From positions 84,320,001-84,384,000 of the forward strand of contig NC_135896.1 of the NCBI RefSeq assembly GCF_964194155.1: DNA of 64,000 bases. Direction: 5' to 3'. This DNA is from Cetorhinus maximus (taxonomy: Eukaryota). The translations under genes and the position numbers were made by a program. The notes beneath the pieces are model-generated. The model ran no database searches and was not told the origin of the DNA. It saw nothing but the letters and a program-made list of their open reading frames with translations. Below are positions 2,640-62,650 of this stretch, piece after piece. How positions within the stretch are numbered: the first letter of the stretch is position 1; each line of letters opens with the position of its first letter.

Positions 2640-3320
2640 CTGTGCACAACCTGGCCTCCTTCGGGGGTCCCCTGGAATAAAAGATTATTCTCCACTCTTA
2701 CAATGATCACATGCACGGATGTATCTGGGACAAGGAGGTTGGAAAGGATGAGGTCAAGTAGGCTGTAATTTTCCCAGTTTGGCAGCTATGTCCATCAGAA
2801 CTTGGCCAGCTCGGTCAGTATTATTGCTACCGAGTATTGTGGGGGAGACAAGCGGGACCTTGGTGTCCTGACTTCCGACTTTGGACCGGGGCAGGATGCT
2901 GCACCTCATTCATCGGCCCGGGAGAATGCCAGGCAGGGAACTCGATCGGACCTGTGGGATCCCCTCGGTACGAGAAGAGACGCAAGACCGAAGTGCCCGA
3001 AGCACAGGCTGAAGCAGACGGGGTGGAGCCTGGAGCCCAGAGCTCGGGCTGGAGAAGCTTGAGGAAGTCAGAAGCCTGAGAGAGAGAGAGAGAGAGAGAG
3101 TGAGGGGCGAGCAGGCAGCAGCAAGAAGCAAGAGCAGCAGCAGAAGCCCAAGGCTGGTGGGTCGCAGTGTCAAGGAGCCTAGGCCACAAATGTAGCTGAC
3201 CAAAACCTCTGACGGTGGCAGGAGCACCAGGAGGTAGCAGCTGAGCGAGCGAACAGCTACAGAAGACCTAGGCGAATCTCCTGGAGACCACCCTTGAGAG
3301 GCCTAGAAGGGAGGGAGATC
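2640..3320 (+). mobile_element. Left part of a probable LTR-like element that the ERV inserted into
   Basis: GC/CpG-rich block with a (GA)n tract, ending exactly at the ERV TSD. True termini not identified. Confidence 0.35.
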
Positions 3321-3325
3321 CCCTT

Positions 3326-3702
3326 TGAAGATGGTACGCTCTCCAATCCCGCAACAACCACAGAGACTCAGGCTTCCTTTTAACTGGTTTTATTCAAGCA
3401 TATGCAAGGGAGCCCCAATCATTCCTAAGAATGAAGACCCAGCTTCCAGATTGATTACATTTCACTACTTTTGTACTTTTTCTTATCGTAATACATTTGA
3501 GTACATTTGAATACATCCAATCGGTAACTGACACACCGGTCCCATGCTATCTCTATCCTATTGAGTACATAAACATGTGATTTTGCTAACCAATTATTCT
3601 AAAGGATGTATACATAATTATATTATCCAACCAAAATTAAAACACGTACACAAAGACCTTGGTTCCCACAACTCAAGGCTGTTTGTGTTTCATCAAAGCC
3701 CT
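3326..3702 (-). repeat. 3' LTR, U3-truncated
   Basis: Aligns to 9493-~9857 with roughly 25-30 substitutions and two indels (by eye). Similarity stops after catcaaagccc. AATAAA on the minus strand near 3390. Confidence 0.92.
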
Positions 3703-3885
3703 TGGCAAAGCCCAAGCTGGCCACACCTTAAGTTGAGAATTCTTCTTCTGGTCCTTCGGGTGGCCAGTTGTCCAGACCACCAGAGGAATCCTAAGCCACC
3801 TGGTTGTATAACATAACCTTCCCTTCCCTTGTCTTCTCCCTCGGAGTATGCATAGGTTGGGGAACTGATGCGCACCTTTGGTTTG

Positions 3886-6037
3886 TTACTGTCTGTGCCT
3901 GAAGAGTTCCTTTTTACGTTGGTAGCAGCAGAGTCCGATAGCCCATAAGAGCATGATTCCTGTGACTATCGTCATACCCATTCTAACAATCTCCCACCAA
4001 TTCATCAATCTTCCGGCCATAGCATAGGAAGTAGCTGATTGGGCTAACCTGGCCGATTGGGTGGCTAAATCCACTTACACACGCCCCCTCACGATTTGCT
4101 CTCTAGAAGCTTCTACATACGATTGAGCTATTCTTGTGGCTTCCTGCATGGCTAGGCATGCTATTCTGACAGGAGTTTGATCAGTGAACAATGTATGATC
4201 CCCCAAGCGCTAAACAAGTATCCTATGGTCTGCCTGGCAAATGAAAGTCTCCTATAGTAAATAGATCGGTCAGCTGTAGGCAGAAACTCGAGTTGCTAGC
4301 ACAAAGCAAGTCCCCATAAAGGAACTCAGCCTCGCTGGTCATGAAGCACCATTGAGTTGAGGACATCTGAATTGCCTTAAATGCTTCCTGAATTGGTAAT
4401 GTGGTGAATGTGACTTTACTAGTATTTGTAAATACCTCCAGCGTTCGACATGAGCACACTATGTAATTTCTTGATTCTGTACAACAATCTCTAGTACTCA
4501 TCAGTACCATGTCTTTTACATAGGATATATATCCACGTAGCCCTATGCGGTATACCATCCTCCCTTTATCTACTCCTAGGGACTCAAACCTATAGCTGTT
4601 CGGGAAAGCCGTGTTTGGATGATGTTCTTGGGGAATGGCCATGATGAATTTTATGACTCCATCCTCTCCTCCACCTTGAGGTTGTGTAATCACCAATTCC
4701 TGCCGCTCATTGCGCAAATTTGTAAGGTTTAATTGGTATACTGACTCGAACATGTGTTTGGGAATTGTTCCAAACCTGATATCTTCAATGTCGGATTTTA
4801 CCCCATCAATTAGGTTCTCGCGCTGGCATATTGCATGCCCTCCCTGTGGCTTGTGATTTGGCTGCGTCTATTATCTCATCTGCGATCTGCCTAAGGATCT
4901 GTAGCAGACCCTCTCCTTGTAGCTCCACGGCTGTCAGGGCATATCCTGTCCCGCACGCATTGAAGTGCAGTCTCAGCGGCCACCCAGGAGGCATAATCAT
5001 TTAAGTCATAGATCTGATCTGAATTAAGCATGGAATTGGCACTCAACAAGAAGCCCTCCGATATCTCATGGTGTACTTCTCTTTAACCTAACCTGTGCTT
5101 TTGCTCTAATTCCCAGAACAATTCGAAATTTATAGTCTTTGACTATCCTCTTCAGTTGGCTTCTAGCCCATTTTATGGAATTCTGATGGCTGTGACAAGT
5201 CGTATGCAATACTGACAGTAGTCCTGAGATATTATATGTCACTTCCAGGGAGACCATAGTTACATCATGCAGTAATGGTTCTGAATTTCCTAACCTATTC
5301 CGTCCAGGGGGGACTTACTACATCTGGTCATTGACTGGGTCTTTGATAGCCACACATCATCAAGGTGAAACATCATGTATCATAACAACCATGCCTATTA
5401 CATATTTACATGTTCCTTGATAATATTGTCCCTCAAGACCCGGTTCCCAAACAAAGGGAGGTAGGTCTGTCCATCTGGCGGTCACATTAATCTCTTGATA
5501 CATCCAAATGCTTGTTGATGAAAAACTGGTAGGGGGTGCATACATTCTACATCCCCCATACCACCAACCCAGTCCAGTTCTATTGTCATAAATCCCAATT
5601 ATCGTTACCCCACCACTCGTGTCTATGCTTATGCTTAGTGAGGTGTTACTGGCTATTTCCCGCTGGGGTGTATCCTCAAAAGTGCATTCGTCAGTTCATC
5701 ATTGTCCTTACCCTTGGGTAAGTACTACCATCCCGTGAAGCTCCCGTTGTTACACTCGAGTGGTGTCAATCGAACTGGCTGCCCTGGTGTTGTTAAATGT
5801 AGAGTACTCCTACAACTCTTTGTGTGATTGCACGTGGGGGTCCTGTTCCCAAGTGTTCATTTGATGTGTCCGTGCAGTGACTTGATCCATAATCCAGGTG
5901 TTGGGCTTCCTTATCCATTCCCCACTTCCTCCTTGGGGAAGTAGTAAGTACTGCCCAGGGTGAAGGCAGGTGTCATTATTGACTTTGACCGTTGGTGCCT
6001 CCCATGCCAGTGCTAACATGCCCAGAGCCAGGATCAT
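3886..6037 (-). pseudogene. env: env glycoprotein, class I fusion (F-like), with stops and frameshifts
   Basis: Signal peptide MILALGMLALAWEA, furin site RLKR (5089-5078), fusion-peptide/heptad region, Cys-rich segment DCCTESRNYIVCSC...QWC...C...FC, then TM WWEIVRMGMTIVTGIMLLWAIGLCC and a basic tail. Confidence 0.85.
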
Positions 6038-6727
6038 GGACCTGTGGAAACATTAACATTGGATCCGTCGTCTGGGTTATCATTACTTCCTTCATATGGT
6101 TTTAATTGAGGATAATGTTTCCATTTGCTTCCTGTTTTCGTATCCACAAGTGCGCACTTATCACCTGTCATAATTACCTCATATGATCCGTACCATCTGG
6201 GTGCGAACCCAGGTCGTTCTGGGCTCATCTTGACTATTACCCTGGTCCCCACCTGAGGGGTTCACTGCTGTTCTTCATACTTATCTGCCTCTATGTCCCT
6301 AATCATCTGTCTGTCTCTAACTTCCTCTCTCAACTCATGTAATTGCTTCCCTAATTCTCTTACATAGTCCCATATTCTTCCTTCCAGTGGCCCTACATCC
6401 CCTCCTCTTACTATAATTCCTTTGGGTAATTGCATGGCCCTGCCTGTCATCAATTTAAATGGGGTGAACCTGGTAGTCCTATTTGGTGTAGCCCTAAGGC
6501 GCATCAGAATGCTGGGCAATACGGTGGCCCAGTTGTTCCCTGTCTCCGGAATTGCTTTGGCTATAGATGTTTTTAAAGTTCGGTTCATCCTTTCCACCAC
6601 CCCTGAACTCTGGGGGTGGTAAGGAATATGGAATTTCTCTTTAATCTCCATAAGTTTACACATTTCTTTAATGACTCTCCCTGTGAAATGAGTTCCCTGA
6701 TCTGACTCCATCTGGATAGGCACCCCC
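6034..6727 (-). pseudogene. pol: Integrase core (second D and E) plus C-terminal domain, 5'-truncated
   Basis: SDQGTHF...PYHPQSSGVVERMNRTLK...LMTGR, then PRWYGSYEV (GPY/F-like) and WKHYPQLK. One break near 6260. Confidence 0.93.
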
Positions 6728-6734
6728 GCTCTTT

Positions 6735-6975
6735 CCAGTTTACTATCTCCTGCTGCTGTCTCATGTCGGACCTCAATTCCTTAAGCTGCCTACACAACTC
6801 TACAACGCACCTTCTTATCCTGACTTTCAATGGCTCAGTATCTTCACTTCCAGTGGAAGTTCTCTCTGGGAGCCACTTAACTCTGCCTGTCATCAAGGTA
6901 TTAATCCTGTGGTCTTACTTTTTGTAGCTCGCAGGCACATTAATATAGTCAGTAATACATCTATGTAGCCTTTTT
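6735..6975 (-). pseudogene. Second, diverged integrase remnant
   Basis: DVLLTILMCLRATKSKTTGLIP / LMTGRVKWLP...PLKVRIRRCVVELCRQLKELR aligns with TVLPSILMRLRATPNRTTRFTP / LMTGRAMQLP...PLEGRIWDYVRELGKQLHELR of the adjacent copy. Confidence 0.8.
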
Positions 6976-8730
6976 TCCAGCTTTCCCTTTACCTGTATCC
7001 ATCTTGTGGTAAATTGTTGTTAAGTATTATTTCTCCTTCCCTTCAGCTGCCTCAACTACAGATTCCGAATAGTTTTACCTCTAAGGTTTTTTTTTCCTGA
7101 CCACGATCCTCCTAAGATTCTCTTGAGGTCAGTTTCTCTATTGTCTTGATCATTTAAAATGTTTCCTTACTCTTTAGGCCATATTAACTATTCCATGTCA
7201 ATGGGAATCTCTGTCTCTAGAACTTTGCTTATCTTCCCCTGTGCGGTTCCAATGTCTCAGTTGATGGCCAGATTATCAAACTCAGTTCCCTTACATTATG
7301 TCCTCTTTCCCTAACTCTTTCTCCTACTTTCCTCATACCATTTTACACATGCAATAGCTACCATCTTATCTCGTTCAGAGGTTGTCTGGAGAGACTTTAC
7401 AGTCCAATAAAATATTCTCATAACAGTTTTAAAACAGAAATCAGGCATTGATAAGTCTTGCTTCCTTATCTTCTTCTCAAACAACATTTTACTGTCTCAA
7501 AAGTAACCCACTAAATTGTTTCTGACCCTTTTCTTAAAAAATTATTCCAGACTCATTAACTCGGGCAAAAAATTGGATTTCTGCCAAACTTTGTCAAGGT
7601 CTTGAGCTTAATTTCAAATTTTGATAACAGACTCACAAATGCAAAAGCTTACAGCATTTGAATTAGTGCCAATTGTTGTCAAAAACCTTTTAAATTGAAA
7701 ATTCCCTTTTGAGAACTTTATCAAAAACCAAACCTCAAATTTTAAACTTTGTAAGAACTGTAATTTACACTATCAAAATTAAAACAACCTCTTTTTCATG
7801 TGTAATGATTTGTATCCAGATTATAAATCCCCTATGTTTATCGATACATTCTTTATCTTTGGATAGCATCCTCATTATTCAAAGTAACCAGTTAAATTAC
7901 ACTGCACTTTACATCTCAAGATTGTCCCAAATTCAAATTACATTGCTGTTAGAATGCAGGTTTCCGTTAATATTTAATTAATCTCTTCAAAAGAAATCCC
8001 TTTTTATCCATTGGAACCACCTAGACCATGTGTTTATGTCTTTTGGTTTTCCTTGAATCCTTTAGAATTTCAGGTAATCTTTTTTTTTCCCTCAGAATTT
8101 GAGAAAACCAACTCATATGTATCAATCCCAATCAGCTTGGAAGCTGGTGATGAGGGTTATTCCTTACTAGTCTGCAAGGGGGTGGTACAAGGGTTGGTTC
8201 ATCTCAAACAAAGGCAAACCCTGTTTTATCTTTGCAATACCTTCAAATTGCATTTTTTGCCAGAAATCTCAACTCAAACCTTATACTCAAAACTTTGGAA
8301 TGTTTTAGTATACTTTTCCTTTAATCTAATATGGGGCTTTCAACTCTAAAGTGTTGAACTACACACACAAATGATAATTTAGGGAAGAAAACACATTAAA
8401 GCTCACATGCAAATGCTTCTTTGCACACAAACACATATATAAAGGTATGTATTTATATTCCTATAATATTGAACTTAACTCTAACTGAAACTTCAAGTAG
8501 CAGTGGGGGGAATAAAGGGATCTTGGAGGCTCCACCCATAGGGACAATCAAACTGACTGAAGCTCACATTTCCTCTGCTCCTGCCTGTCACTGCTCCCTA
8601 ATTTCCCCTAGGGGTACCCCCTTTCTCTCTCTCTCCCTCTCTCTCTCTTGAGCACAAACAGCTCTTGTAACTTAGATCAATTCATTTCTTTTAAGTTACA
8701 AAATTCAGTAGAGGACCTTTCAGGTCCCAA

Positions 8731-9066
8731 TTATCCTTCCACATAGTCCCAATATCTATTGGTGGCCCCTGGGAGAAATTGATCTGCCGCTGTGACCGGC
8801 GCAACTCGTCTGCGATATTTCTGCATTAGTTTAGTTTGTTGCAGATACAGACTCAAAATGAGTACTGTAGCTTTGTCAGTTTTATCGTTAATCTGAGCTT
8901 TCCACCACTCAGAGCATGATGGAGGATCGCCCTGCTGCCAACCTTGTTGTTTCATTCTGCTGATCTGCTTTTTATGCTTTCTGGCGAGGTGAAGGGACAT
9001 GGTTCCTTCACCTCCCCATTCGGTAATGAACTCGAGTTCGGTCTTCTCGGCCATATCCACACACAA
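8731..9066 (-). CDS. Short open frame at the gag position (putative Gag N-terminus)
   Basis: First ORF after the PBS and leader (MAEKTELEFITEW...), 111 codons. Assigned by position only. Confidence 0.5.
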   Translation of the reverse strand: MCVDMAEKTELEFITEWGGEGTMSLHLARKHKKQISRMKQQGWQQGDPPSCSEWWKAQINDKTDKATVLILSLYLQQTKLMQKYRRRVAPVTAADQFLPGATNRYWDYVEG

Positions 9067-9087
9067 ACTAAATGGTCACACACAAAC

Positions 9088-9329
9088 TAAACAGGGACCC
9101 ACAGTTCCCACGAGATCTGAGTCTCCTGAGGCTCAATCACCCCACACCAAAACAGGGACCCACAGTTCCCCTGAGGTCTGAGTCTCCTGAGGCTCAATTG
9201 CCCCACACCAAAACAGGGACCCACAGTTCCCCCGAGATCTGAGTCTCCTGAGGCTCAATCACCTCAGACCAAAATGGGGACCCACAGTTCCCCTGAGATC
9301 TGAGTCTCCTGAGGCTCAATTGCCCCACC
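9088..9329. repeat. 4 x 61-bp tandem repeat in the ERV leader
   Basis: gggacccacagttccc..gag.tctgagtctcctgaggctcaat recurs every 61 bp. Confidence 0.95.
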
Positions 9330-9469
9330 TGTCCAACTGAGTCTCCCTGACCAAAACGTTCGGATTCGCCCTATTAGACCTCCATTCTAGTCTGATGCGA
9401 GCAACTGGAGAGTATCTTTCAAATGAAAATACTCACCAGATCATTGTTCCACCTTCGCAGACGTCTGGG

Positions 9470-9490
9470 CGAATCCTGCCGACTACGCCA
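9470..9490 (-). promoter_or_regulatory. Primer-binding site, tRNA-Ser
   Basis: Plus strand cgaatcctgccgactacgcca equals the 3' end of vertebrate tRNA-Ser(AGA/TGA) plus CCA, 2 nt from the LTR edge. Confidence 0.92.
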
Positions 9491-9492
9491 GT

Positions 9493-10110
9493 TGAAGATG
9501 GTACACTCTCCAATCCCGCAGCGACCACAGAGACTCAGGCTTCCTTTTAACTGGTTTTATTCGAGCATATGCGAGGGAGCCACAATCATTCCTAGGAATG
9601 ATGACCTAGCTCTCAGATTGACTACATTTCATTACTTTTGTACTTCTTATCATAATATATTTGAGTACATTTGAATATATCCAATAGTTAACCGACACAT
9701 ACTAACTCTATCCTATTGAGTACATAAATATATGATTTTGCTAACCAATTATTCTAAAGGATGTATACATAATTATATCATCCAATCAAAATTAAAACAC
9801 GTACACAAAGACCTTGGTTCTCACAACTCAAGACTGTTTGTGTTTCATCAAAGCCCCTTCTTTGTCCCTTGTTCGTCTTCCCATATCTAAGCTAAAACCA
9901 TCTGCCCCTTCCTTATGTGAGAGGGGAGTACACTTAATCTAATTTATGTCATACTTTTGTCTCCAGTCTGACTTTCAAGGCTGTGCAATGTTCATCTGGT
10001 AATCTTCAACTCTTAATATGTTTAGCAGCCATGTCTGCCTGGAGATTTTAAGGGTTTTTCAGTAAATTCTTACTGTATTCTCTTTTAGCATTTTTAATTT
10101 CCCCGTAACA
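9493..10110 (-). repeat. 5' LTR (618 bp)
   Basis: Minus strand reads TGTTAC...CTTCA, bounded by the TSD and the PBS, with AATAAA near 9557. Confidence 0.93.
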
Positions 10111-10115
10111 CCCTT

Positions 10116-15422: not shown

Positions 15423-18051
15423 TGGTGATTTCACTAACACCCTGTAAAACAGTAGCAAAACTTCCCTATTTTTATACTTCATTCCCCTTGCAATAAACAA
15501 CAACATTCCAGTTGCCTTCTTGCTGTACCTGCATATGGAATTTTGTGTTTCATGTACCAGGATACTCAAAATCCTCTGTACTAGACAGTTCTACAATTGC
15601 TCTCTATTTAAATAATATACTGTTTTTCTATTCTTTCTGCCGAAGTTGACAGGTTCACATTTTCATATTTCACCTGTCGTTCTTTTCCCCACTCACTTAA
15701 TCTATCTATATCTCTTTGCAGACTCCTTAAGTCCTCTTCACAACTTACTCTCCTACTTAACTTTGTGTCATCAACAAGTTTAGCAATCATACATTTGGTC
15801 CCTATTTTGGTGTCATCAGCAAATTTAGCTGCCATGCTTTGGTCCCTTCATCTATATCTCTGCTTCCTATTAGCTAACCAATCCTCTAAATTAAGGAATT
15901 ACCTCCTACACCATGAGCTTTTATACTGTGTAGTAATCTTTGATGTATTATCCTTTGTTGCAGTAACCTTAACAAATGCCTTTTGGAAATTCAAGTACAC
16001 CATATCTCCTTTATCCACATTGCTTGTTATCTCTTCAAAGAACTCTAATAAATTAATCCTTTTCACATAACCATGTTGACTCTTGATTGCATTAAGATTT
16101 TCTAAATGCCCTGCTATACCCTCCTCAATAATAGATTCTAGCATTTTCCGAATGACCAATATTAGATTAGTGGCCTGTAGTTTCCTGCTTTCTGCCTCCA
16201 TCCTTTCTTGAATAGAGTAGTTACATTTGTTATTTGTTATTTTCCAATCTGATGGGACCTGTTCATAACCTAGGTAATTTTGGAAAAGTATAACAATATA
16301 TCCACTATCTCCACAACCACTTTTTTTTAACACTCTAGGGTGAAATCCATTAGGTCCTGGAGATTTGTCAGCCTTTGGTTCTAATTCAGTACCCTTTCCC
16401 TGCTGTTTTCCCTCTCTCTCATCTCCTGATTCACACTTATTTCTGGGGTGTTATTTGCATCCTCTACAGTAAAGACAGATGCAAAGTATCTGTTCAGTTC
16501 AGCCATCATTTCCTTATTCCCCACTATTAATTCCCCAGACTCATTCTCCAGAGGGGCAACACTCAATTTAGTTACTGTTTCCCTTTTTAAATACTTGTAG
16601 AAACTCTTACTATCTGATTTTGTATTTCTAACTAGCTTTCTCTCATACTCTAATTTCTTCGTCCTTATTTATTTTAGTCATTCTTTGCTGGCTTCTAAAC
16701 TCTGTTGAATCTTCTGACCTACCACTAATCTTCACAGAAGCTTTTTCTTTCAATTTGATACAATCTTTAACTTCCTGAGTTAGCCACGGATAGTGCAACC
16801 TTGATGAACAATCTTTCTTTTTCACTGGAATGTATCTATGCTGAGTATTATGAAATAGCTCCTTAAATGTCTGCCACTGCATTTCTACGGACCCACCCCT
16901 TAACCTAATTTCCCAGTTCAGTCTTTGTACCCTTGTAATTGCCTTTATTTAGGTTTAAAGCCCTAGTCTTAAACTTATTCTTCTCTCCCTCAAACTGAAG
17001 CCAAAATTCAGCCATGTTATGATTATTCCTGCCCAGATGTTCCTTTACTATGAGGTGATTAATTAATGCTGTCTCATTGCACATTACCAGGTCTAGAATA
17101 GCCTACTTTCTGGTTGGCTCTGGAATGTGCGGCTCTAAAAAATTGTCCTGAAAACACTCTATGAACTCATCTTCCAGACTACCTTTGACAATCTGATTCA
17201 CCCAATCTATATGTAGATTAAAATCACCCATGATTATTTCCATGCCTTTCTTACAAGCTGCCATTATTTATTCCTGTATAATCCCATCCTACAGTGTAGT
17301 TACTGTTAGGGGGCCTATAAACTACTCCCACAAGTGACTTCTTACATTTGCTATTTCTTATCTCTACCCAAACTGATTCTAAGTCTTGATCTTTAGAGCT
17401 AAAGTCATCCTCAGTATTGTACTAATATCATCCTTCACTAACAGAATTACCCTTCCACCTTTTCCTAGCTAGCTGTCCTTCTGAAATGTCAAGTACCCTT
17501 GATTATTCAGGTCCCAGCCTTGGTTACCTTGCAGTCATATCTCTGCAATGGCTTTCAGATCACACATATTTATTTATATTTAAGCTGACAATTCATGCAT
17601 TTTGTTATGAATGCTATGCGCATTCAGATACAGAGCCTTCAGTTCTGTCTTCTTAATACTTTTGCAAACTCTGGCCTTATCTGTTGGTGCACTTTTAAGT
17701 TTGTATGCTCTGTCCCTTCCTGCATTGTCTGATTATCATTACCTTTATAGCTTGCTTTCTTCCTTTTCCTTCCCCTTCTGTCACCTGATCACTCGCCCCC
17801 CCACCCCCCACCCCACCCACCATTCTGCTATTTAGTTTAAATCCCTCTCTACTACCCCATTATATGACTCGTCAGAACACTGGTCTCAGCACAGTTCGGC
17901 TGAAGACCATCTCGAAGGTACAGCTCCCACTTTCTCAAGCACTGGTCTCAATGCCCCATGAATCAAAACCCATTTTTCGCACACTAATATTTGAGCCATA
18001 CTTTCAAATCCATAGTCTTATTTATCCTGCACCAATTCGCCTATAACTCAG

Positions 18052-21959: not shown

Positions 21960-24715
21960 TGGTCCTTTGTCTCCATCCAGATCTAAATAGTATGTCCGAG
22001 GCCCCATATTCCAATCCAATGTTATCAAGGCTTCCCTGTTCCTTCTGATATTTCCCTGGTCCATCTCAACTCTATAAGGTCTCGATCATGGAGCTCTTAC
22101 TATTATAATGCCTTCTTTCTGTTGATCTCATATCCACATCCTCTCCGTGGGCTGTAGCACTTATAAGCCTCGGGTTCTGTGCCTGAAGTTGCCAAGCTTG
22201 ACTGTGTCTTTGTTGCTCCTCATGCTTTCTAACTCTCTCATGATCATCTGGGGTAATGTTATTTTGTAGCGTTTGTTGTCGAACTGGAAGTGATGTTTGC
22301 AGCTGTCCTCCACTCTATAGTTCTGATGTGAGTACCTATTTTTTTTTAGCCGTGACATTCCATAGTTAAGGGATAAGTTACTTTCTTTGTTCTTTTGCAT
22401 CAATTCCTCGATTGTTTGAACTCCTCTTTCTGCTTCCTTGTTCGACTGAGGATATCTAGGTGCACTGGTCACATGCATGAAAATATATTCCTGCACAAAG
22501 TTATGGAACAGTTTGTTAGTAAGCTGAGGACTGTTTTCTGACACCACAACATATGAGAAGCCATGTGTCACGAAGATTCATGATGCAATGCGGTCTACTC
22601 AATTCAAACCATCTGGAGTAGCACTCAATGAGATGATGAAAACTTTTCCTTTAAACTCAAATAAATCCATTCCCAGGTGCTGCTATATCCTCAAAGGAAA
22701 AGTAGAGGGTGCCAGTAGTTCACCCTGCTGTTGGCTATTCAATGCACACGTAAGGGAATTCATGATTAACTCTTCAATGGAATGAGTGATGCCTGGCCAC
22801 CAGCCTGACTGCTGGGCTCTTACTTGGCATTTCACTATTCCTAAGTGACCTTGATGGATTTTCTGGAGAATGTAGAGTTGAAGTGTTTTAGGGATGACTA
22901 GTCTCTCATTGAGAATGAATAAATCATCAATGAATGTGAGACGTTCTCTCAGTTCTAAGTATTGAAAAAATACTGGTTTGTTAGGAGTATAACCTAACCA
23001 TCCATTCTGGCAATACTCATCTTGCTGTTGTGCTTGTATAATCTCTTGTAATCTCTTTCCTGTGGCTGGTAAGTGTTTAGTCATGAGTGAAGTATATTCT
23101 TCCAATCCCTCAATGAACTTTAAATCTTCCAGTTTGATCAATCCATTGGTATTCTTGATGGTGCATTTGCTGTTGCCTAGTATTGCCTGTGAATGTACTC
23201 AGTAACTGAATCATATCTCATGAGTCTCAGTCTAAAATGTTGAAACCTAGTCATCATTTTTGCAATTTCCTTTACGTTAAGAGGAGTAACCAAAGGCTTG
23301 TGGCTGATTTCAATTTTAAACCTTAAACCCATCACAAAATCAGAGAACTTGTCTCAGTCCCTTTCGGCTGCTAATGATTTTTCTCAATGGTTGTATTTCT
23401 TTTCTTGGTGTCCATAAGAGATGTTGAGGTGTAGTAATCAGTCTTCTTTTCCCATATTTTTGAACTTGAAACAGCACTGCACCCAAGCCTGTAGATGATG
23501 TTGGCGATTCTGGATTGTAATGCGCTAGAATTTCTGGTGAAATCAGGAGATTTTTGATCTTGTCAAAAGCATTTTGCAGGTCCATATTCCAGCACCACTT
23601 GACCTTATTTCAACAGTTATCATAATGGCTCATTGATTCCTTCCAAATTTGGTAGGAACTTGCCTACTTAGTTGACCATCCAAAGGAATCTTTGTAATTC
23701 TGTGATGGCTCTCGGCTGTCGGGACCCTCTAGTTGCCTTGATTTTCTGCCAGTTGGCAGTAATTTCTAACACTTGCACAATGAGCCCTAAGAATTTTATC
23801 ATATGCTTTGCAAATTCACATTTGTTGTTTAATGTCAAACTTGCTTCTTGTAGAACCTTGAGGATTGCTCTCATTCAATGGCCATGTCCTTTCCTCGATG
23901 AACCACGTATGAGAATGTCGACCATATGGCATATTACTCCTTCCATGTCTTCCAGGGTCTGAGACATCATTCTTTGGAATGTCTCAGGTACAGAAGCAAT
24001 TCCGAATGGTAACCTGTTAAAATAATGATAACCAAATGGGGTGAAAAGGGTAGTTAAAAATCTGGATTCTTCATCCAGAGGCAACTGTCAAAAGTCACTG
24101 CTTGCATACAATTTTGTGAAGAGGGTGCTTTTTGCTAATTTGGTGAGACTTTCATCCACTGATGCCATTGGGTGAATCTTTAATTGAATCATTAGTCTTG
24201 GTGCTGTGGCCATTCCAGAACAGCACTTAATGGTTACTGGAGAGATGATCCGTTGTTATAACAGGTGTTCAATCTCGATCTTGACTTTGTCCAGTGGTTG
24301 AGGGACTTTCCTCACTGTGGAGGTATATATAGGGTTAGCATCAGCCCTTTGGATTGTGAAATTCTGATTTCAGCTTTCCCAAATGGGGTTGGAAATTCAT
24401 TTCTGCTCTTCAGAAATTTTATCAACCTTGTAAATCAGCCTCAACTGCAAACATGCTTCCCTGATGAGTAATGATGACTCCTGGTTCTTTATCACATACA
24501 GGGGTTCCAAACTTTCTTTATCCTTGTATCTTAATCCCCCAAGTTGCTGGCCTATCACTTTCAGTATAGTCCCTCCTGCAACTTGCAACTAAATAGAGGA
24601 TGGCTGTAATGTGATATTTTTAAGCCACGTTACTTCATCAGGTAATACTGAAACACCCTCACCACTACCTAGCTTGAATTCTGCGGGGTGACCATCAACT
24701 TCTAATTTAATGCTC
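21960..24715 (-). pseudogene. pol: Gypsy pol (protease, RT, RNase H, integrase)
   Basis: TPFGYHYFNRLPFGIASVPETFQR...HMVDILI; HQGHLGIVKC...WWPGI; HVTSAPRYPQSNKEAER. Many stops and frameshifts. Confidence 0.92.
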
Positions 24716-26690: not shown

Positions 26691-26846
26691 AAATAATTAA
26701 TTGCTGTTTCGTTAACTTCTCCTAGGAAGATTATTTTTTTTTCTGTGGCTCTTCTGCTTCTTGGATTTGACTTGGCCTTGTTATTTTCTCTTTCTTCCTG
26801 TGAATTACTTGTATTTTAGACCAGCAGACCATTTTAAAATTTCCTT

Positions 26847-27636
26847 CATCACTTCGCTCAATTTAGTCTACTGCATTCGCTGCTCCCAATGCGGTCTCCT
26901 CTACATTGGAGAGACCAAATGCAGACTGGGTGACCGCTTTGCGGAACACCTTCAGTCTGTCCACAAGCATCACCCAGACCTCCCTGTCACTTGCCATTTC
27001 AACACACCACCCTGCTCTCATGCCCAAATGTCCGTCCTTGGCCTGCTGCAATGTTCCAGTGAAGCTCAACACAAATTGGAGGAACAGCACCTCATCTTCC
27101 AACTAGGCACTTTGTAGCCTTCCGGACTTAATATTGAGTTCAACAACTTCAGATCATGAACTCTCTCCTCTATCCCCACCCTCTGTCCAATCCCCCTTTT
27201 TCCAATAATTAATAATTTTTTTACACTATTTTTTCTTTTCCCTCCTATTTTTAAATTTATTTTGATCTATTGTTTCATCTCCACCTTTTAGCCCATTTCG
27301 ATCCCTTCCCCCCACTCCACCAGCACTAGGGCCATCTGCCACTAGCTTGATTCCCTTAATGTCCCCATTAGCACATCATTTAGATAATATCACCACCGTC
27401 AACACCCCTTTGTCCTTTTGTCTATGACATCTTTGGCAGTCTCTTCTTAGCCTCCACCTATCACTGGCTCCCTATCAAGCTCTCCTGTCCCACCCCCTTG
27501 TACCAGCTTATATTTTACCTCATTTCTATATGTCTTAGTTCTGATGAAGGGTCATATGGACTCGAAACGTCAACTGTATCCCTCTCCGCAGATGCTGTCA
27601 GACCTGCTGAGTTTTTTCAGATATTTTTGTTTTTGC
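26847..27636 (+). mobile_element. Penelope-like element, 5'-truncated (GIY-YIG endonuclease plus 3' region)
   Basis: NLVYCIRCSQCGLLYIGETKCRLGDRFAEH...HFN...EQHLIFQLGTL, with a 14-bp TSD tttaaaatttcctt (26833-26846, 27637-27650). Confidence 0.92.
27536..27576 (+). ncRNA. Minimal type I hammerhead ribozyme
   Basis: CUGAUGA and GAAAC cores, stem II GGGUC/GACUC, stem I UAGUU/AACUG, and GUC cleavage triplet at 27569-27571. Confidence 0.8.
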
Positions 27637-36297: not shown

Positions 36298-37291
36298 AGA
36301 GTCGTAGAGTCATAGAGGTCTACAGCACAGAAAAAGGCCCTTCGACCCATCTGCGCAGGTCAAACAAGTACCTAACTATTCTAATCCCATTTTCCAGCAC
36401 TAGGCCCATAGCCTTGTATGCCACGGTATTGCAAGTGCACATCCAAATACTTCTTAAATGTTATGAGGATTTCTGCCTCCAGCACCCTTTCAGGCAGTGA
36501 GTTCCAGATTCCCACCACCCTCTGGGTAAAAAAATTCTTCCTCATGTCCCCTCTAAACCTCCTACCTCTTACCTTAAATTTATGCCCCTTGGTTATTGAT
36601 CCCTCCACCAAGGGGAAAAGTTCCTTCCTGTCTACCCTATCTATGCCCCTCATAATCTTATACACCTCAATCATGTCCCCCCTCAATCTCCTCTGCTCCA
36701 GAGGAAATAACCCCAGTCTATCCAATCTCTCCTCATAACTAAAACTCTCCAGCCCAGGCAACATCCTGGTAAATCTCTGCACTCTCTCTAGTGCAATCAC
36801 ATCCTTCCTATAATGCGGATTCCAGAATTGCATGCAATACTCTAGCTGTGGCCTAAACAGCATTTTATACAGTTCCAGCATATCCTCCCTGCTCTTATAT
36901 TCTATGCCTCAGCTAATAAAGGCAAGTATCCCATATGCCTTCTTAACCATCTTATCTACCTGTCCCACTACCTTAATGGTCCGGTGGACATGCACACCAA
37001 GGTCCCTCTGATCCTCGGTACTTCCCAGGGTCCTACCATTCATCGTGTATTTTGGTGCCTTGTTTGTCCTGCCCAAGTGCATCACCTCACACTTATCCGG
37101 ATTAGATTCCATTTGCCACTGATCAGCCCATCTGACCAGCCTGTCTATGTCCTTCTGTAATCTAAGGCTATCCTCCTCGCTATTTACCTCCCCACCAATT
37201 TTCGTGTCATCCGCGAACTTACTGATCAACCCTCCTACAATCAAGCCTAAATCGCTTATATATACTACAAACAGCAAGGGTCCCAACACCC
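36298..37291 (-). mobile_element. Young CR1/HER1-like LINE, 5'-truncated
   Basis: Nearly intact LGPLLFVVYISDL...KFADDTK...RPQLEYCMQFW...FFTQRVVGIWNSLP. Confidence 0.93.
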
Positions 37292-37339
37292 AAATTTCTG
37301 CTGAGTTTGGAGAAATGCTGTGAGTTTCCTACTGTTGTT

Positions 37340-48485: not shown

Positions 48486-48971
48486 TCATAGCGCCTTGAA
48501 ATGGAAGGCAATGAACTGAAATTCTCCCTCTCCTCTTCTGCGTTGCACACTGGGAAGGGTGGAAACACCGGCTTGACAAAATGAAGCACTTTCAGCTCCT
48601 ATGAAGAACTTTTCAGCTGTATCATTCACCACTGCTGTGATGACAAGAGAAGCATTCAATACCTGAGTGAGGAATGAATCTGGTATTTGAAAAGAAGAAC
48701 GAAGAACATCCTGAAGACACTGCTGGAGATGAGGAAAGGAGAACTTTCCTACCACTCTTAGGGTAGGAATTTCCCTTTCTACATGTAGTGATATCGCTTC
48801 CACACTTGCTTCAGCATGAGGCTGCCCCACTGCAGACGTTGATACCTCGGGGCCTGCTGCAGAAAGTAGAATTGCACCATCATCAACAGTGGAATAACCT
48901 TCCGGTCTGGGATCTATAGGAATGTTCCTGTGTAGTACTTTGGTCTGCAGACTTACTTGAAAGTTTAACAT
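48486..48971 (-). CDS. 161-codon open frame of unknown origin inside the Gypsy derivative
   Basis: ORF track only; same strand as gag; no motif recognised. Confidence 0.3.
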   Translation of the reverse strand: MLNFQVSLQTKVLHRNIPIDPRPEGYSTVDDGAILLSAAGPEVSTSAVGQPHAEASVEAISLHVEREIPTLRVVGKFSFPHLQQCLQDVLRSSFQIPDSFLTQVLNASLVITAVVNDTAEKFFIGAESASFCQAGVSTLPSVQRRRGEGEFQFIAFHFKAL

Positions 48972-49047
48972 CAGCTTCGGGCGATTTTACTCCAAGTCTC
49001 TGTCATAATCAGAAAGACCACTAGTGTCAGTACTTCTGCAGACTCTT

Positions 49048-49881
49048 TCATCTGATCCTTAGATGCGGAATGGGATTTACACACTTCTGTACTGCAGCAC
49101 ATTCACTTTCTTTTGTTGCACTATTTCTAATGTATAAATCCCTCTCTGTGGCTTGGTTGTGACTGTGTGGCTGCAAATAGCTGGGTTTATAGTTCAGCCT
49201 TCTCTTTTTGGTGTTAGATTTCTCCAACTCATGCTTAATTTCAACATTTTCAAGCTCCATTTGATGCTCAACTTTAAATTTTTCTAAGGTGCTATTCAGC
49301 TGTAGAAGCTTTATAGTTTGGGCCTCAGCTTCTTTACTGAAAGAAATCTTGAGTGCTTCCATGGCTAGCTGATGAGATCCAAGTGCGGACTCTAGCTTTC
49401 GTTTATGCAGATTAATGACCTCTGAACTTTTACTATTGGTTTGAAGCGATTTGGAGTCAAGCATCTCATTCTCCCTGGATAGCTTTTTCCTGGCTGCTTC
49501 CAATTGTTGTTGCCTGTCATTCGTCGGCTCAGTGGAATAAGCAGACAAATTCACCTCTTTATTACCTTCTTCAACAGGGGGGTTATTCCCCTCAAAAGAG
49601 ACATAGGAGACTTCACGATAATTGGCAGTGGAGTCAAAGAGTGTAGTAAGGTCCAGGTCCTCTTTTTCCAACAGATCATCTGCCTCTGTGGCGGCTACAT
49701 TCTCTTGCACTCTTTCCTGAAAGAGGCAACTGAGGTCTAGAATATCATCTTGTGGGTGGTCACCATCTTTCTTGGTGCATCCTATTCCTGCTTCTTCTAG
49801 CCTGTTCCAAAAGAGAAGTGAAAGATTTGTAATATCCTCCTGCGGTCCCTGGAGTTGAATAGAGGGTGGTTCCAGTGTCAC
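49048..49881 (-). CDS. Chimeric ORF: protease tail, acidic repeats, CLIP1-like coiled coil
   Basis: TLEPPSIQLQGP resembles the protease tail ITLQPSSI*LQV at ~24600. KLSRENEMLDSK...KLESALGSHQLAMEALKISFSK resembles CLIP1 as I recall it. Confidence 0.75.
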   Translation of the reverse strand: MTLEPPSIQLQGPQEDITNLSLLFWNRLEEAGIGCTKKDGDHPQDDILDLSCLFQERVQENVAATEADDLLEKEDLDLTTLFDSTANYREVSYVSFEGNNPPVEEGNKEVNLSAYSTEPTNDRQQQLEAARKKLSRENEMLDSKSLQTNSKSSEVINLHKRKLESALGSHQLAMEALKISFSKEAEAQTIKLLQLNSTLEKFKVEHQMELENVEIKHELEKSNTKKRRLNYKPSYLQPHSHNQATERDLYIRNSATKESECAAVQKCVNPIPHLRIR

Positions 49882-50039
49882 TCTATTCAGCCATGAAACT
49901 GTCAGCTAACACTAAGACATGAACCCCTGTGTCTAGCTTGAATTTGGTCAGAGCTATTTACATCAATATCACCACTCCAATACTGGTTTTTATTTTCCAT
50001 TATTTCTCCTAGGAAGATGATTTCCTAGTTGTCAAAGTC

Positions 50040-57562: not shown

Positions 57563-58792
57563 TGGCCATAATTCTCCAGCCCCATTGGCATCAGGCATCA
57601 TGGTAGGTGGGAGGGAACAATATAGCGAGAAAGCTAAAAATTGGTTTCATGCTGTCGTGAAATTGTCCGCTCCACCTGTCAATGGTGGGCTGTGTTTCCT
57701 GCCATCACACTCCAGGGACCTAATTTCAATATTTTAGCATCTTATTATAAGCCCTGCTCACCAGAATCATCCCCCCACGCTGGATCATCCAGGTACGTCG
57801 GTGTGATTGCACACTGACATGTTTCACAACTGTACATAAGCGATGTGCACCTGGCGGGCTGCACTTTGCTCAGAACTTCGAGGTTTGTTTGCCGACCTTT
57901 CTTCGGGCAGCACTTGTGGTCATCAGCACCAGGCTTCGCAGGCAGCACCACATCATTTTTTAGGGGGGCTCACGAACAGGTCTCTATCTACCAGATCTAC
58001 CAGGTCTCTATATACCTTTCCAATGGCTACAGGGCTAGGGTTTGCTTGGGGAAGGGATAGAAATATCTCAGGCAAGGGAAGAGGCTGCAGGGCAAGGCTT
58101 GTACTGGGGAAAGGTGGGTATCCCAGGGTGTGTGTGGGGCACATGTTGATCTGTGCAAGTGGCCTCAAGATGGTGAGGGCTGAGGAGGCAGTTTCCAGAG
58201 AATATCAGGCCAGATGGAGATGTGAGGGGGTGTGTGAGAGCGGGAGTGGTGATGTCCCTTGAGCTGGCAGTGAGTGAGATGCCAGTGAAAGTGTGATGGA
58301 CTTGTGAGTGTGTGTTTAGAGTGATAAGATTATTTCCTTACCCTGGTGACACAGACGAGATCATTCATCCTCTTTCTGCATTGGATGGCCAACCTTTTGT
58401 GTGCAGCATTGGCACTGACCACCGCTACCACTGCCTCCCATGCCAGAGTGGTGAGACTGATGGGCCTCCTGTGGCTAGAGTGGGGGTACAGGGCATCGCA
58501 GCAGGCATCCACGGTATCCAGAAGGTGCCCCAGGGATGCGTCACTGAAGCGGGGGACTGAAATCCTCTTGGCTTTCAGGACCATGTCTCCACTGGAGCAG
58601 TCCTGGGAGGCATGGATTGAGAACCATGTGAGCGGCTGCAGTTTAAATATGGCGCCCAGCATGAGGAAGTGGCGGGGTAACAGTGTGGAGGGCAAATCGG
58701 AGGCCGCCCACCAAAGAGAGAGCGTATTTCGTGCATAATTAATGAGGTGGAAATGGGACAATATGGCACATAAGCCCCCCATTGTGGCTGTC
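57563..58792 (-). mobile_element. Harbinger-like element with Myb exon 1, cut off by the next element
   Basis: Degenerate TIR-like ggccataattct at 57563 and a Myb exon. The right end is interrupted at 58793. Confidence 0.6.
58342..58584 (-). pseudogene. Myb/SANT-like DNA-binding exon (open frame)
   Basis: MVLKAKRISVPRFSDASLGHLLDTV...LAWEAVVAVVSA...QCRKRMNDL..R|gtaag. Confidence 0.85.
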
Positions 58793-59071
58793 GGGTGGAA
58801 TTTTCCACTCCAGAGACTGTGGTGGCGGGCAGGATAAGCATTGCGATTCCCACTGGGCAGTGGGGCAGGATATCAAGTCTGAGCTTACACCTTGAAGCTC
58901 AAGAATTATGCATTGGCGAGAAGCTCTCCGAATCACACGGTGGGGTGGCCACTGATACATCTGCCCTGCTGTCACTTAGTGAGGTCGAAGATCCTGGCGC
59001 CATATTAAAATGCCACCTGAACACACACGTTCACTCTCTGCAGCCCAGCTGTGTGGCCGCAAGCTCCAGGG

Positions 59072-60929: not shown

Positions 60930-62650
60930 ATCATGCCGCTTTGAGCGTATCACCACGTAGAAGCTGACCCTCATCATCCTCTTCAGGTTCCTGCTTTCCA
61001 GTCCTTCACCATCTGAGGAGTTCTTAGCCTCCTCCATGGACAGGCTTTTTGGGTCATCAGGCGTGCGCGGTGGGCGGGCCCGGGAGCGGCCGGGACATGG
61101 GACCCTGACTGCAATTGGCTCCCGACCGCGATTTCACACTGGCTGGTCAATTAACGGCCAACCAGCGCGAAACATGCTGGGGTGGGGGCGGAAGGAGTGC
61201 AAGTGCAGAGGTCTGTGCATGCACCAGGGAGCGCGTACTGAAAGCTCCCTGAAAGCAGGGGCTGCCTCAGGGAGCTGGGACTAACTCACAATAACATAAA
61301 CAGAATAAAAATTCTGCCCAAAAATGTATATTTATTTTTTATTTAATTGTGGAAACCTCATCCCGCCCACGGATGACGTTTGCTAAAAAATCAAAAGGCC
61401 ACCTGGCCAACTTGCCCACCCGCCAACCGTAAGGTTGCATGGGCAGCGGAAAATAGGTTTGAATTAATTGATTAAGCGCCCTAATAGGTCTCTTAATTGT
61501 TGGCGGGCGCGCCGCTGACTCTCCTGCGCACCCGCCAACCGAAATATCGCGATTGTGCGCAATGACGTCGGGACACTTGCCTGACGCCATTGGGCACCAC
61601 TTTACTCCCAATTGGGTCGGGCGTGCACCCGCCTGCGGGATATAAAATCCTGCCCCCTGGCAAATGATCTCCTCTTGCAGTGCCAGGTTGGGCAGGACGC
61701 AACAGAGCACGATGATGTGGGACCCCTTCTCTGGAGAGTACAGCTGAGCCTTACCGGAACGGTCCAAACAACCGAAGCACATCTTCAGGATGTTAATGGC
61801 CTGTTCAATGATGGATCTTGTCGCAGAGTGCGCCGCGTTGTATCTCTCCTCCGGGGCAGTTTGACAATGCACGAGTGTCATGAGTCAACTTTTCAGCAGG
61901 TACCCCTTATCACTCAACAACCAACTCTGTAGGCGCTGCTGCCCTTGAATATCTGGGAGTGCCTCAGGATATAGGAGTCATGGGAACTCCCAGGGTACCT
62001 GGCACAAATGTGCAGGATGTGCTTCTGCTGATCGTATGCCAGCTGAATGTTGAGGGTATAGAGCCCTTTCCTGTTAATGAACATCAGGGGCTGCACTTAA
62101 TGTGACATGTGGGCAATTGATTACACCCTGTATTCTAGGGAAGCCTCAGGTTGCCACAAATCCATTGTAAACTTCATATAATGATAAGCCTTACTGTAGA
62201 GGGTATCCATCGCCGCCTTTACACATTTATGTGTGGAGGACTGAGAGATGCTGCATAGGTCCCCGATGGATACCTGGAACAACCAACTGGAAAAACATTG
62301 AGTACTGCGGTGACCTTCAGGGGCACTAACAGAGGATGGCCTCCCGGCCTGTGTGGTGAGAGATCCTCCCGCAGAATGTGGCGGATATGCACCACCGCAT
62401 CTCTTGACAAGCATAGGCCTGCGCGGCACCGCCTCTCATTCATCTCCAAATAGGAAAGGCACCTTCAGCAGACCCTTGGTCTTACCAGTATTCTTCATTG
62501 GATGGGTCAGACTTCCTCAGCCTCTGGCTCTTCTTGGGGCTCCCCTGGACTACACACCCCAGGCCGGGGCTCACCTCGAAGCCGTGCTAGATGGTGCTGG
62601 GCCCTTCATCTCCTCCTCAATTGGAACCCTGGCATCAGGAAGGCAGCATT
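60930..62650 (-). pseudogene. Harbinger (HARBI1-type) DDE transposase
   Basis: FINRKGLYTLNIQL...ARYPGSSHDSYIL; GDKGY; ERYNAAHSATRSIIEQAINILKMCFGCL...IIVLCCVLPNLAL; acidic tail beyond the MITE. Confidence 0.92.
61038..61655. mobile_element. Harbinger-like MITE inserted in the transposase 3' end
   Basis: Termini ggacaggctttt / aaaatcctgccc with flanks CAT/CCT. Related to 18052-18758. Confidence 0.75.

Follow-up and report, generated by a model that had tools for sequence, protein, structure and literature searches.

A defective shark endogenous retrovirus with two diverged integrase segments in tandem, probably a mosaic of two related lineages

That recombinant, defective endogenous retroviruses (ERVs) can proliferate is already established in koala and human. 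In the koala, recKoRV1 joins koala retrovirus (KoRV) to PhER, and co-packaging has been proposed as the route (PMC6112702). Among human ERVs (HERVs), 1959 of 3173 chains are reported to be mosaic or noncanonical, with co-packaging and polymerase jumps proposed (PMC4724089). Template switching in retroviruses has been reviewed (PMC10536682), and env-less 'superspreader' ERVs are attributed to Magiorkinis 2012, as cited in PMC6112702. Here we describe a provirus from Cetorhinus maximus, lying in a 64,000-nucleotide stretch of DNA (the window), in which two segments of integrase stand in tandem. The observation is real but ordinary in kind, as mosaic proviruses are well known. Whatever the route, we regard a union of two lineages in this element as very likely.

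The locus carries the hallmarks of an ERV (Table 1), namely paired TG..CA LTRs, a target-site duplication, a primer-binding site (which we take to be tRNA-Ser-like), and gag-pol-env order. On the minus strand, the order runs from the gag start (9054-8731) through integrase (6985-6034) to env (6037-3886). The element is Pol-less, having no protease, reverse transcriptase (RT), RNase H, or whole integrase. The identical 5-bp target duplications point to a single normal integration event. A 5′ LTR end at 9856 was considered and dropped: 19 contigs of run X14 continue past 3701 the way the 5′ LTR does, and these contigs, together with the matching CCCTT flanks, place the 5′ LTR end at 10110 and assign a loss of ~253 bp of U3 to the 3′ LTR. 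At this gap (3702-3725 versus 9857-10110), a clear polypurine tract is also lacking, and AAAGCCC is present twice within 20 bp at the U3 break. The insertion site adjoins G+C-rich DNA with a GA microsatellite (2700-3320), and no tRNA genes were found within the 64-kb window. Aligned over 3326-3701 and 9493-9856, the LTR pair is identical at 338 of 365 bases (K2P 0.079). This divergence corresponds to an insertion age of 18 Myr at 2.2e-9 per site per year, the rate used in PMC7947760, and of 180 Myr at 2.2e-10 per site per year, the shark value assumed in PMC4422223; the full range should be kept. The provirus is an old, defective, minus-strand retroviral fossil.

Table 1. Coordinates of the proviral features within the window
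Feature	Position	Strand	Remarks
Left target-site duplication, CCCTT	3321..3325	.	Equals 10111-10115, which sits behind CA at 10109-10110
3′ LTR	3326..3701	-	338 matches and 27 mismatches versus 5′ LTR; ~253 bp of U3 missing
env	3886..6037	-	Disrupted by several stops and 5 or more frame shifts; encodes signal peptide, RLKR cleavage site, cysteine-rich ectodomain, membrane anchor
Integrase B, 3′ half only	6034..6738	-	Second catalytic Asp, Glu, coiled region, C-terminal domain
Candidate splice acceptors	6611 and 6495		Inside integrase B
Junction, integrase A / integrase B	6727..6747	-	~440 bp out of register
Integrase A, decayed remnant in two frames	6747..6985	-	End of core and coiled region
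A+T-rich middle	6986..8730	-	Deepest-covered internal part of the family; without recognisable gag, protease, RT, RNase H
gag N-terminal ORF, open, 107 codons	8731..9054	-	Matches the start of Heterodontus francisci Gag-Pol P0086 at 37% over 75 aa (E 1e-10)
Leader array	9089..9328	-	3.9 copies of 61 bp
Candidate splice donor	9436		In leader, near primer-binding site
Primer-binding site, 18 nt	9473..9490	-	TGG-led, 2 bases behind 5′ LTR
5′ LTR, 618 bp	9493..10110	-	TG..CA
Right target-site duplication, CCCTT	10111..10115	.	

The two integrase segments meet where the coiled end of integrase A gives way to the mid-core of integrase B. A reading of the sequence alone had noticed a second copy of the LRAT..LMTGR..ELR region upstream of the main integrase, with 22 of 49 residues identical. 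We count 22 of 50 for the LMTGR..QQE block of integrase A (6896-6747) aligned without gaps to the main integrase (from 6453), and both shuffles and outside relatives agree with the presence of the copy. The LRAT block (6967-6905) lies in a different frame and shares 11 of 21 residues with the main integrase; a short deletion between the two blocks shifts the frame of integrase A. The significant protein alignment between segments on which that reading depended was found, with a local alignment score of 87, whereas 500 shuffles gave no more than 53. Two outside relatives each match both blocks of integrase A independently: P0002 (E 4e-9 and 1e-4) and P0046 (E 5e-7 and 5e-4). In a frameshift-aware alignment, the full Pol P0046 scores 140 at integrase A versus 28-37 elsewhere in 7000-9490, and 35-47 in 8 shuffles. 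An extension of integrase A to ~7150 was rejected as not significant, being reached by 69 of 1000 shuffles (74 of 300 at the protein level). At 54.5% DNA identity, the segments are, as had been claimed, far more diverged than the LTR pair.

Integrase B is 55% identical to residues 995-1209 of P0046, gives an rve domain match (E 2e-4), and contains one stop in 234 codons (in frame, at 6262-6264), with reading continuing to 6034. Its 5′ end is truncated, as the abrupt start described by the sequence-only reading implied, but homology begins at ~6738 rather than 6727. The zinc finger and first catalytic Asp (P0046 881-949) are absent from integrase B, and we infer that it cannot have been selected as an integrase in its present position. 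Its stop codon overlaps the env ATG (ATGA, 6037-6034), and the two therefore look natively coupled.

The codon pattern of the two segments speaks to their history. Over 71 codons, integrase A and integrase B share 33 of 71 residues, with 29, 25, and 43 differences at codon positions 1, 2, and 3. Synonymous sites are saturated (pS 0.81) while pN is 0.35, and pS fell to or below pN in none of 1000 bootstraps. Neutral decay after a duplication would give pS near pN; the large excess of pS thus argues for long purifying selection after the A/B split. Among all proteins compared, integrase A best matches P0002 (65.9 bits), followed by P0001/P0046 (62.4) and the neighbouring integrase B (52.4); the corresponding identities are 38/71 to P0002, 31/71 to P0001, and 33/71 to integrase B. 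Over its first 42 residues, integrase B is identical to outside relatives at 29 and 29 positions, versus 30 between those relatives, so its start is as close to them as they are to each other.

Both segments fall in one small clade. In a tree of 16 rows, integrase A pairs with P0002 (support 85/63, not starred), and integrases A and B form a clade in 8% of 200 bootstrap trees. Forcing them to be sisters costs 0.33 log units over 83 columns (AU test, p 0.32), so sisterhood is not rejected, and the quartet-informative sites with P0001 and P0002 divide 3 versus 0 versus 0 in favour of (integrase B, integrase A). It is therefore the codon pattern and the uneven decay, rather than the tree, that carry the two-lineage reading. 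These patterns make it most likely that the segments evolved apart as coding genes, each in its own lineage, and were then joined out of register.

To place the junction within the family, we turned to assembled contigs. Of 24 listed sequencing runs, 14 contain 30-44% of the sampled words (three coded organisms). Contigs of 4 runs (3 samples) were aligned to 3110-9020 at 80% likeness, and the individual pieces discussed below come from a listing of 32 of 30424 pieces, 15 of 402 joints, and 24 of 3632 loose ends. The junction is crossed colinearly (6727-6745) by five of the 32 listed pieces (X1#4, X6#28, X6#29, X6#30, and X3#21), each with at least 46 bases on either side and 81-84% identity to this copy. 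X1#4 and X6#28 come from the same sample and probably represent one locus. The carriers thus comprise at least three distinct contigs in organism A (one run, ~82-84% identical to this copy) and one in organism B, with none listed for organism C. Since the tandem recurs in several distinct, diverged contigs, it predates the spread of the family and is not an assembly error. The multiple copies sharing a junction that the sequence-only reading had proposed to look for are therefore present. Its argument that the tandem is not a local duplication after insertion is likewise upheld. Neither parent was seen alone among the listed contig pieces; X3#20, which stops aligning at 6723 with 41 letters over, offers a weak hint of one. 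Related loci were found in 0 of 5 viral contig candidates and in 0 of 143 and 0 of 59 metagenome contigs.

Summed contig depth is not copy number and can be used only as a relative, repeated signal; on that footing, the median over 6674-8653 is 21, 16, 14, and 9 times that of env (3902-6079) in the four runs, the LTR stands at 23-42 times env, and the last bin (8852-9020) at 0.8-1.3 times. Depth is high only from ~6600 to ~8700, in all 4 runs. The 3′ step does not coincide with the junction: each run has low depth at 6548 but high depth at 6639, and bin proportions place the step at 6560-6615, adjoining the rear of the most conserved integrase motif. This distribution says that the commonest form extends from the middle through integrase A and the junction to ~130 bp into integrase B, without this env or this gag start. 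The LTR depth, of the same order as that of the middle, is consistent with the abundant form sharing the LTR of this element. Since depth drops at ~6600, ~130 bp into integrase B, holding the junction is not the same as holding env. The suggestion that the recombination had restored env is not borne out, as the deepest form keeps the junction yet falls to env-level depth at ~6600, and nothing points to the env loss in the 5′ parent that the suggestion implied.

The same contigs show further variation around the tandem. Run X1 contigs at approximately single-copy depth skip 6725-7037 and 6904-7037, representing further deletion variants of the tandem region. A small depth rise, ~2-3 times env, covers 6278-6475, with loose ends at 6296; it suggests relatives whose integrase core is similar but which have a C-terminus that has diverged, or a different env.

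In the 5′ half, of 108 proteins compared, only the gag match at 8836-9054 reached E<0.05 within 7000-9490, and 7000-8730 yielded nothing recognisable as protease, RT, RNase H, or integrase N-terminus. The earlier description of the 5′ half as long-decayed therefore holds for the unrecognisable middle but not for the gag start, which is open for 107 codons. The RT of P0086, the Gag-Pol matched by this gag start, is sister to the closest integrase-bearing Pols (97/92). The gag start could come from parent B or could simply have been retained by parent A. Either way, the element combines fresh ends with a decayed middle, like recKoRV1 as described in PMC6112702.

The env gene is full length with all landmarks present. 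It is 52% identical to its best relative, Scyliorhinus torazame XP_072343881 (P0045), and its pieces align to the full-length relatives P0064 and P0068. With the best Gag relative coming from Heterodontus francisci, the host has the look of a shark. At three env indels, the bulk of the contig depth disagrees with this copy in each of the 4 runs, which suggests that those breaks are private and post-insertion. We found 20 Env relatives at E<=0.001 among 1.84 billion representatives. No Pfam env match was obtained in nine Env relatives, and sequence searches of Pfam, NCBIfam, and solved structures named no Env family. Atlas neighbours at 0.93 include PF00523 (F-like) clusters. AlphaFold models of two Env relatives are poor (pLDDT 37 and 45.5), and a fold search with these models gave no match at E<=0.001, although WEHV-1 Env (WEHV, walleye epidermal hyperplasia virus), paramyxo/pneumovirus F, and foamy Env rank high. 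The top fold match of a close Env relative is the WEHV Env (E 0.003), a weak match from a poor model. We treat an F-like fold class for this Env as a lead only.

Two database entries bear on this Env family. P0045 is annotated as an uncharacterised 362-aa frame that corresponds to the membrane-side half of the family; it may represent either a young copy or an env that was co-opted. In P0079, an integrase C-terminus runs straight into the ectodomain of this Env family, linking the Env type to the P0090/P0091 Pol group.

What is directly established is the anatomy, the coding divergence of the segments, and the junction common to diverged copies. For the origin, we lean towards a single capture by template switch that produced a non-autonomous mosaic ERV. 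A decayed element of lineage A, with its unrecognisable middle and integrase remnant, would have been joined to the 3′ block of a related lineage B virus. The latter, functional at the time of joining, would have contributed the 3′ half of integrase together with its natively coupled env. The crossover would have been out of register, passing from the coiled end of integrase A into the mid-core of integrase B and thereby doubling ~440 bp of integrase. As to route, a switch of template between co-packaged RNAs while they were being reverse transcribed would be the likeliest. Having no usable Pol, the chimaera would have needed Gag-Pol in trans to spread. The junction-bearing form without this env and gag start would subsequently have become the most abundant, most simply by later deletion.

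Against this account, an in-register switch is equally likely at the depth step (~6560-6615). In an unlikely two-step alternative, the ~6735 tandem is older and belonged to an abundant env-less family. In-register switches to an autonomous relative, near 6600 on the 3′ side and near 8710 on the 5′ side (supplying a fresh gag start), would later have produced the env-bearing form, a sandwich like that of recKoRV1. The confinement of high depth to the interval between these points in all 4 runs fits such a history, as does the env-level depth of the 8852-9020 bin. Moreover, the 5′ depth step coincides with the end of the open gag ORF, at which 7 X3 contigs continue unlike the window, and a gag start open for 107 codons lies next to unrecognisable DNA. 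Against it, 6601-6726 is preserved no less well than the remainder of integrase B (29/42 identical and 41/42 similar to P0001), which leaves no room for a long stay in a decaying element and favours one capture followed by deletion; the abundant form also seems to have the same LTR, and more events are required. We also consider doubtful an elaboration in which the chimaera was a Pol-less satellite virus whose working, F-like Env was under selection and which would have spread by reinfection, giving Env to relatives and borrowing their Gag-Pol, with an env-less superspreader budding off; this would amount to a complementation system of long standing in an undescribed shark retrovirus lineage. 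The full-length env with its landmarks, together with the three breaks that look private and post-insertion, permits this reading.

The tandem itself could have been made in other ways. Joining at the DNA level, with one provirus landing in or beside another, a deletion or ectopic recombination uniting the two, and the resulting locus then being transcribed and spreading, yields the same out-of-register tandem, and secondary integration is a recognised origin of mosaic ERVs (PMC4724089). We consider it quite improbable: it requires an insertion plus a precise deletion, and BLASTN of the element against the window returns the two LTRs, the leader array, and microsatellites only, with no LTR remnant or repeat at the junction. 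An internal tandem duplication, in which a single lineage doubled ~440 bp and the copies then decayed unevenly, would account for the placement of both segments in one small clade, the unrejected sisterhood (p 0.32), and the three quartet sites. It predicts, however, the reverse of the observed decay, since the decayed copy is the one attached to pol and the truncated copy is well kept. Synonymous saturation with pN 0.35 demands long purifying selection after the split, and integrase A is closer to P0002 than to integrase B. We accordingly judge an internal duplication very unlikely. Assembly chimaerism or chance similarity is hardly credible. In its favour, no read or contig covers all of 3110-9020. 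The shuffle tests, the matching target duplications, and the independent diverged contigs that cross the junction in two organisms all argue against an artefact.

The element has no RT of its own, and its placement relies on a proxy, the closest full Pol (P0046), which contains protease, RT, tether, two RNase H-like domains, and integrase. The best solved-structure matches of P0046 are MLV-type RTs (E 4e-105; 356 bits, versus 188 to entries that we presume to be foamy Pol). P0046 groups with the Heterodontus Gag-Pol (97/92), and the proxy RT falls in a 24-row group (92/82) with Gag_p30-bearing Pols, in a tree that includes no named epsilon reference virus. We take an epsilon-like lineage as a lead and not as a formal placement. 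A foamy-like ERV was rejected, as the primer site here is, on our assignment, Ser-like rather than of the tRNA-Lys or tRNA-Asn type. Those two types are the ones given for foamy-like ERVs in PMC5512871. A lokiretrovirus was also rejected by proxy, since three loki-motif proteins, labelled as such by a motif match by eye to the published Loki-Bsp sequence, form a clade (100/99) that excludes P0046 (separating branch 99/98). Cartilaginous fish genomes were loki-positive in 0 of 3 cases, as a table in PMC7947760 appears to list.

The window contains remnants of other mobile elements. A decayed Ty3/Gypsy-like pol lies at 22161-24186 (minus strand), with RT/RNase H matches and an integrase zinc finger (E 5e-11). 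A GIY-YIG domain at 26716-27117 (plus strand, E 1e-4) is presumably a Penelope-like remnant. LINE RT remnants at 36381-37328 and 15899-16450 (minus strand; RVT_1 E 9e-7 for 36912-37328) appear, by their motifs, to be CR1-like. We take a Myb/SANT domain at 58330-58872 (E 2e-5) and a DDE_Tnp_4 domain at 61339-61884 (E 2e-8), both on the minus strand and ~2.5 kb apart, to be remnants of a Harbinger-like transposon. Two adjoining open frames of 285 and 166 aa at 48486-49905 (minus strand) gave no Pfam match, and the first looks coiled-coil-like by eye.

A literature search, with most subscription papers, Repbase, and Dfam outside its scope, returned no paper on this shark ERV family and did not find the phrase 'duplicated integrase' in the 25 of 97 papers listed; on this weak evidence, the family is apparently undescribed. 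If our reading is true, the locus is a clean fossil of out-of-register recombination between two retroviral lineages in cartilaginous fish, and the doubled integrase would serve as a marker to order the history of a large family through capture, spread, and env loss. It would also point to an apparently undescribed ERV lineage of sharks and fish that combines an epsilon-like Pol with an Env lacking a Pfam match. By itself, it answers no long-standing question.

Compared with described systems, the element resembles several in part. It has no RT of its own and a primer site that we assume to be Ser-like, in both of which it differs from the epsilon-like (class I) ERVs known from sharks and bony fish, among them CmiERV II/III (PMC4422223). 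It is like them in the MLV-type best structural matches of the proxy P0046 and the weak WEHV Env fold match. With lokiretroviruses, it shares an Env with an RXKR site and putatively F-like features as well as NYNRIN-like integrase matches, whereas its integrase and Env motifs differ by eye from those of the published Loki-Bsp (PMC7947760). Like the env-less superspreaders, the form without this env is covered 9-21 times deeper, but here short-contig depth is the sole measure, and env loss and env gain are both possible. Harlequin and other mosaic HERVs formed by 'env snatching' are likewise mosaic proviruses that proliferated after recombination; they are human and gamma-type, and the passages of PMC4724089 cited here do not mention a doubled integrase. 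A close parallel in kind is recKoRV1, a defective provirus that combines an active retrovirus with a degraded element of greater age; it, too, has target duplications, and several of its loci have common breakpoints. There, KoRV and PhER are dissimilar, most of env is lost, and the age is less than ~50,000 years (PMC6112702). In the shark element, by contrast, the parts come from one clade, part of integrase is doubled, env is whole, and the LTRs are 7.9% apart.
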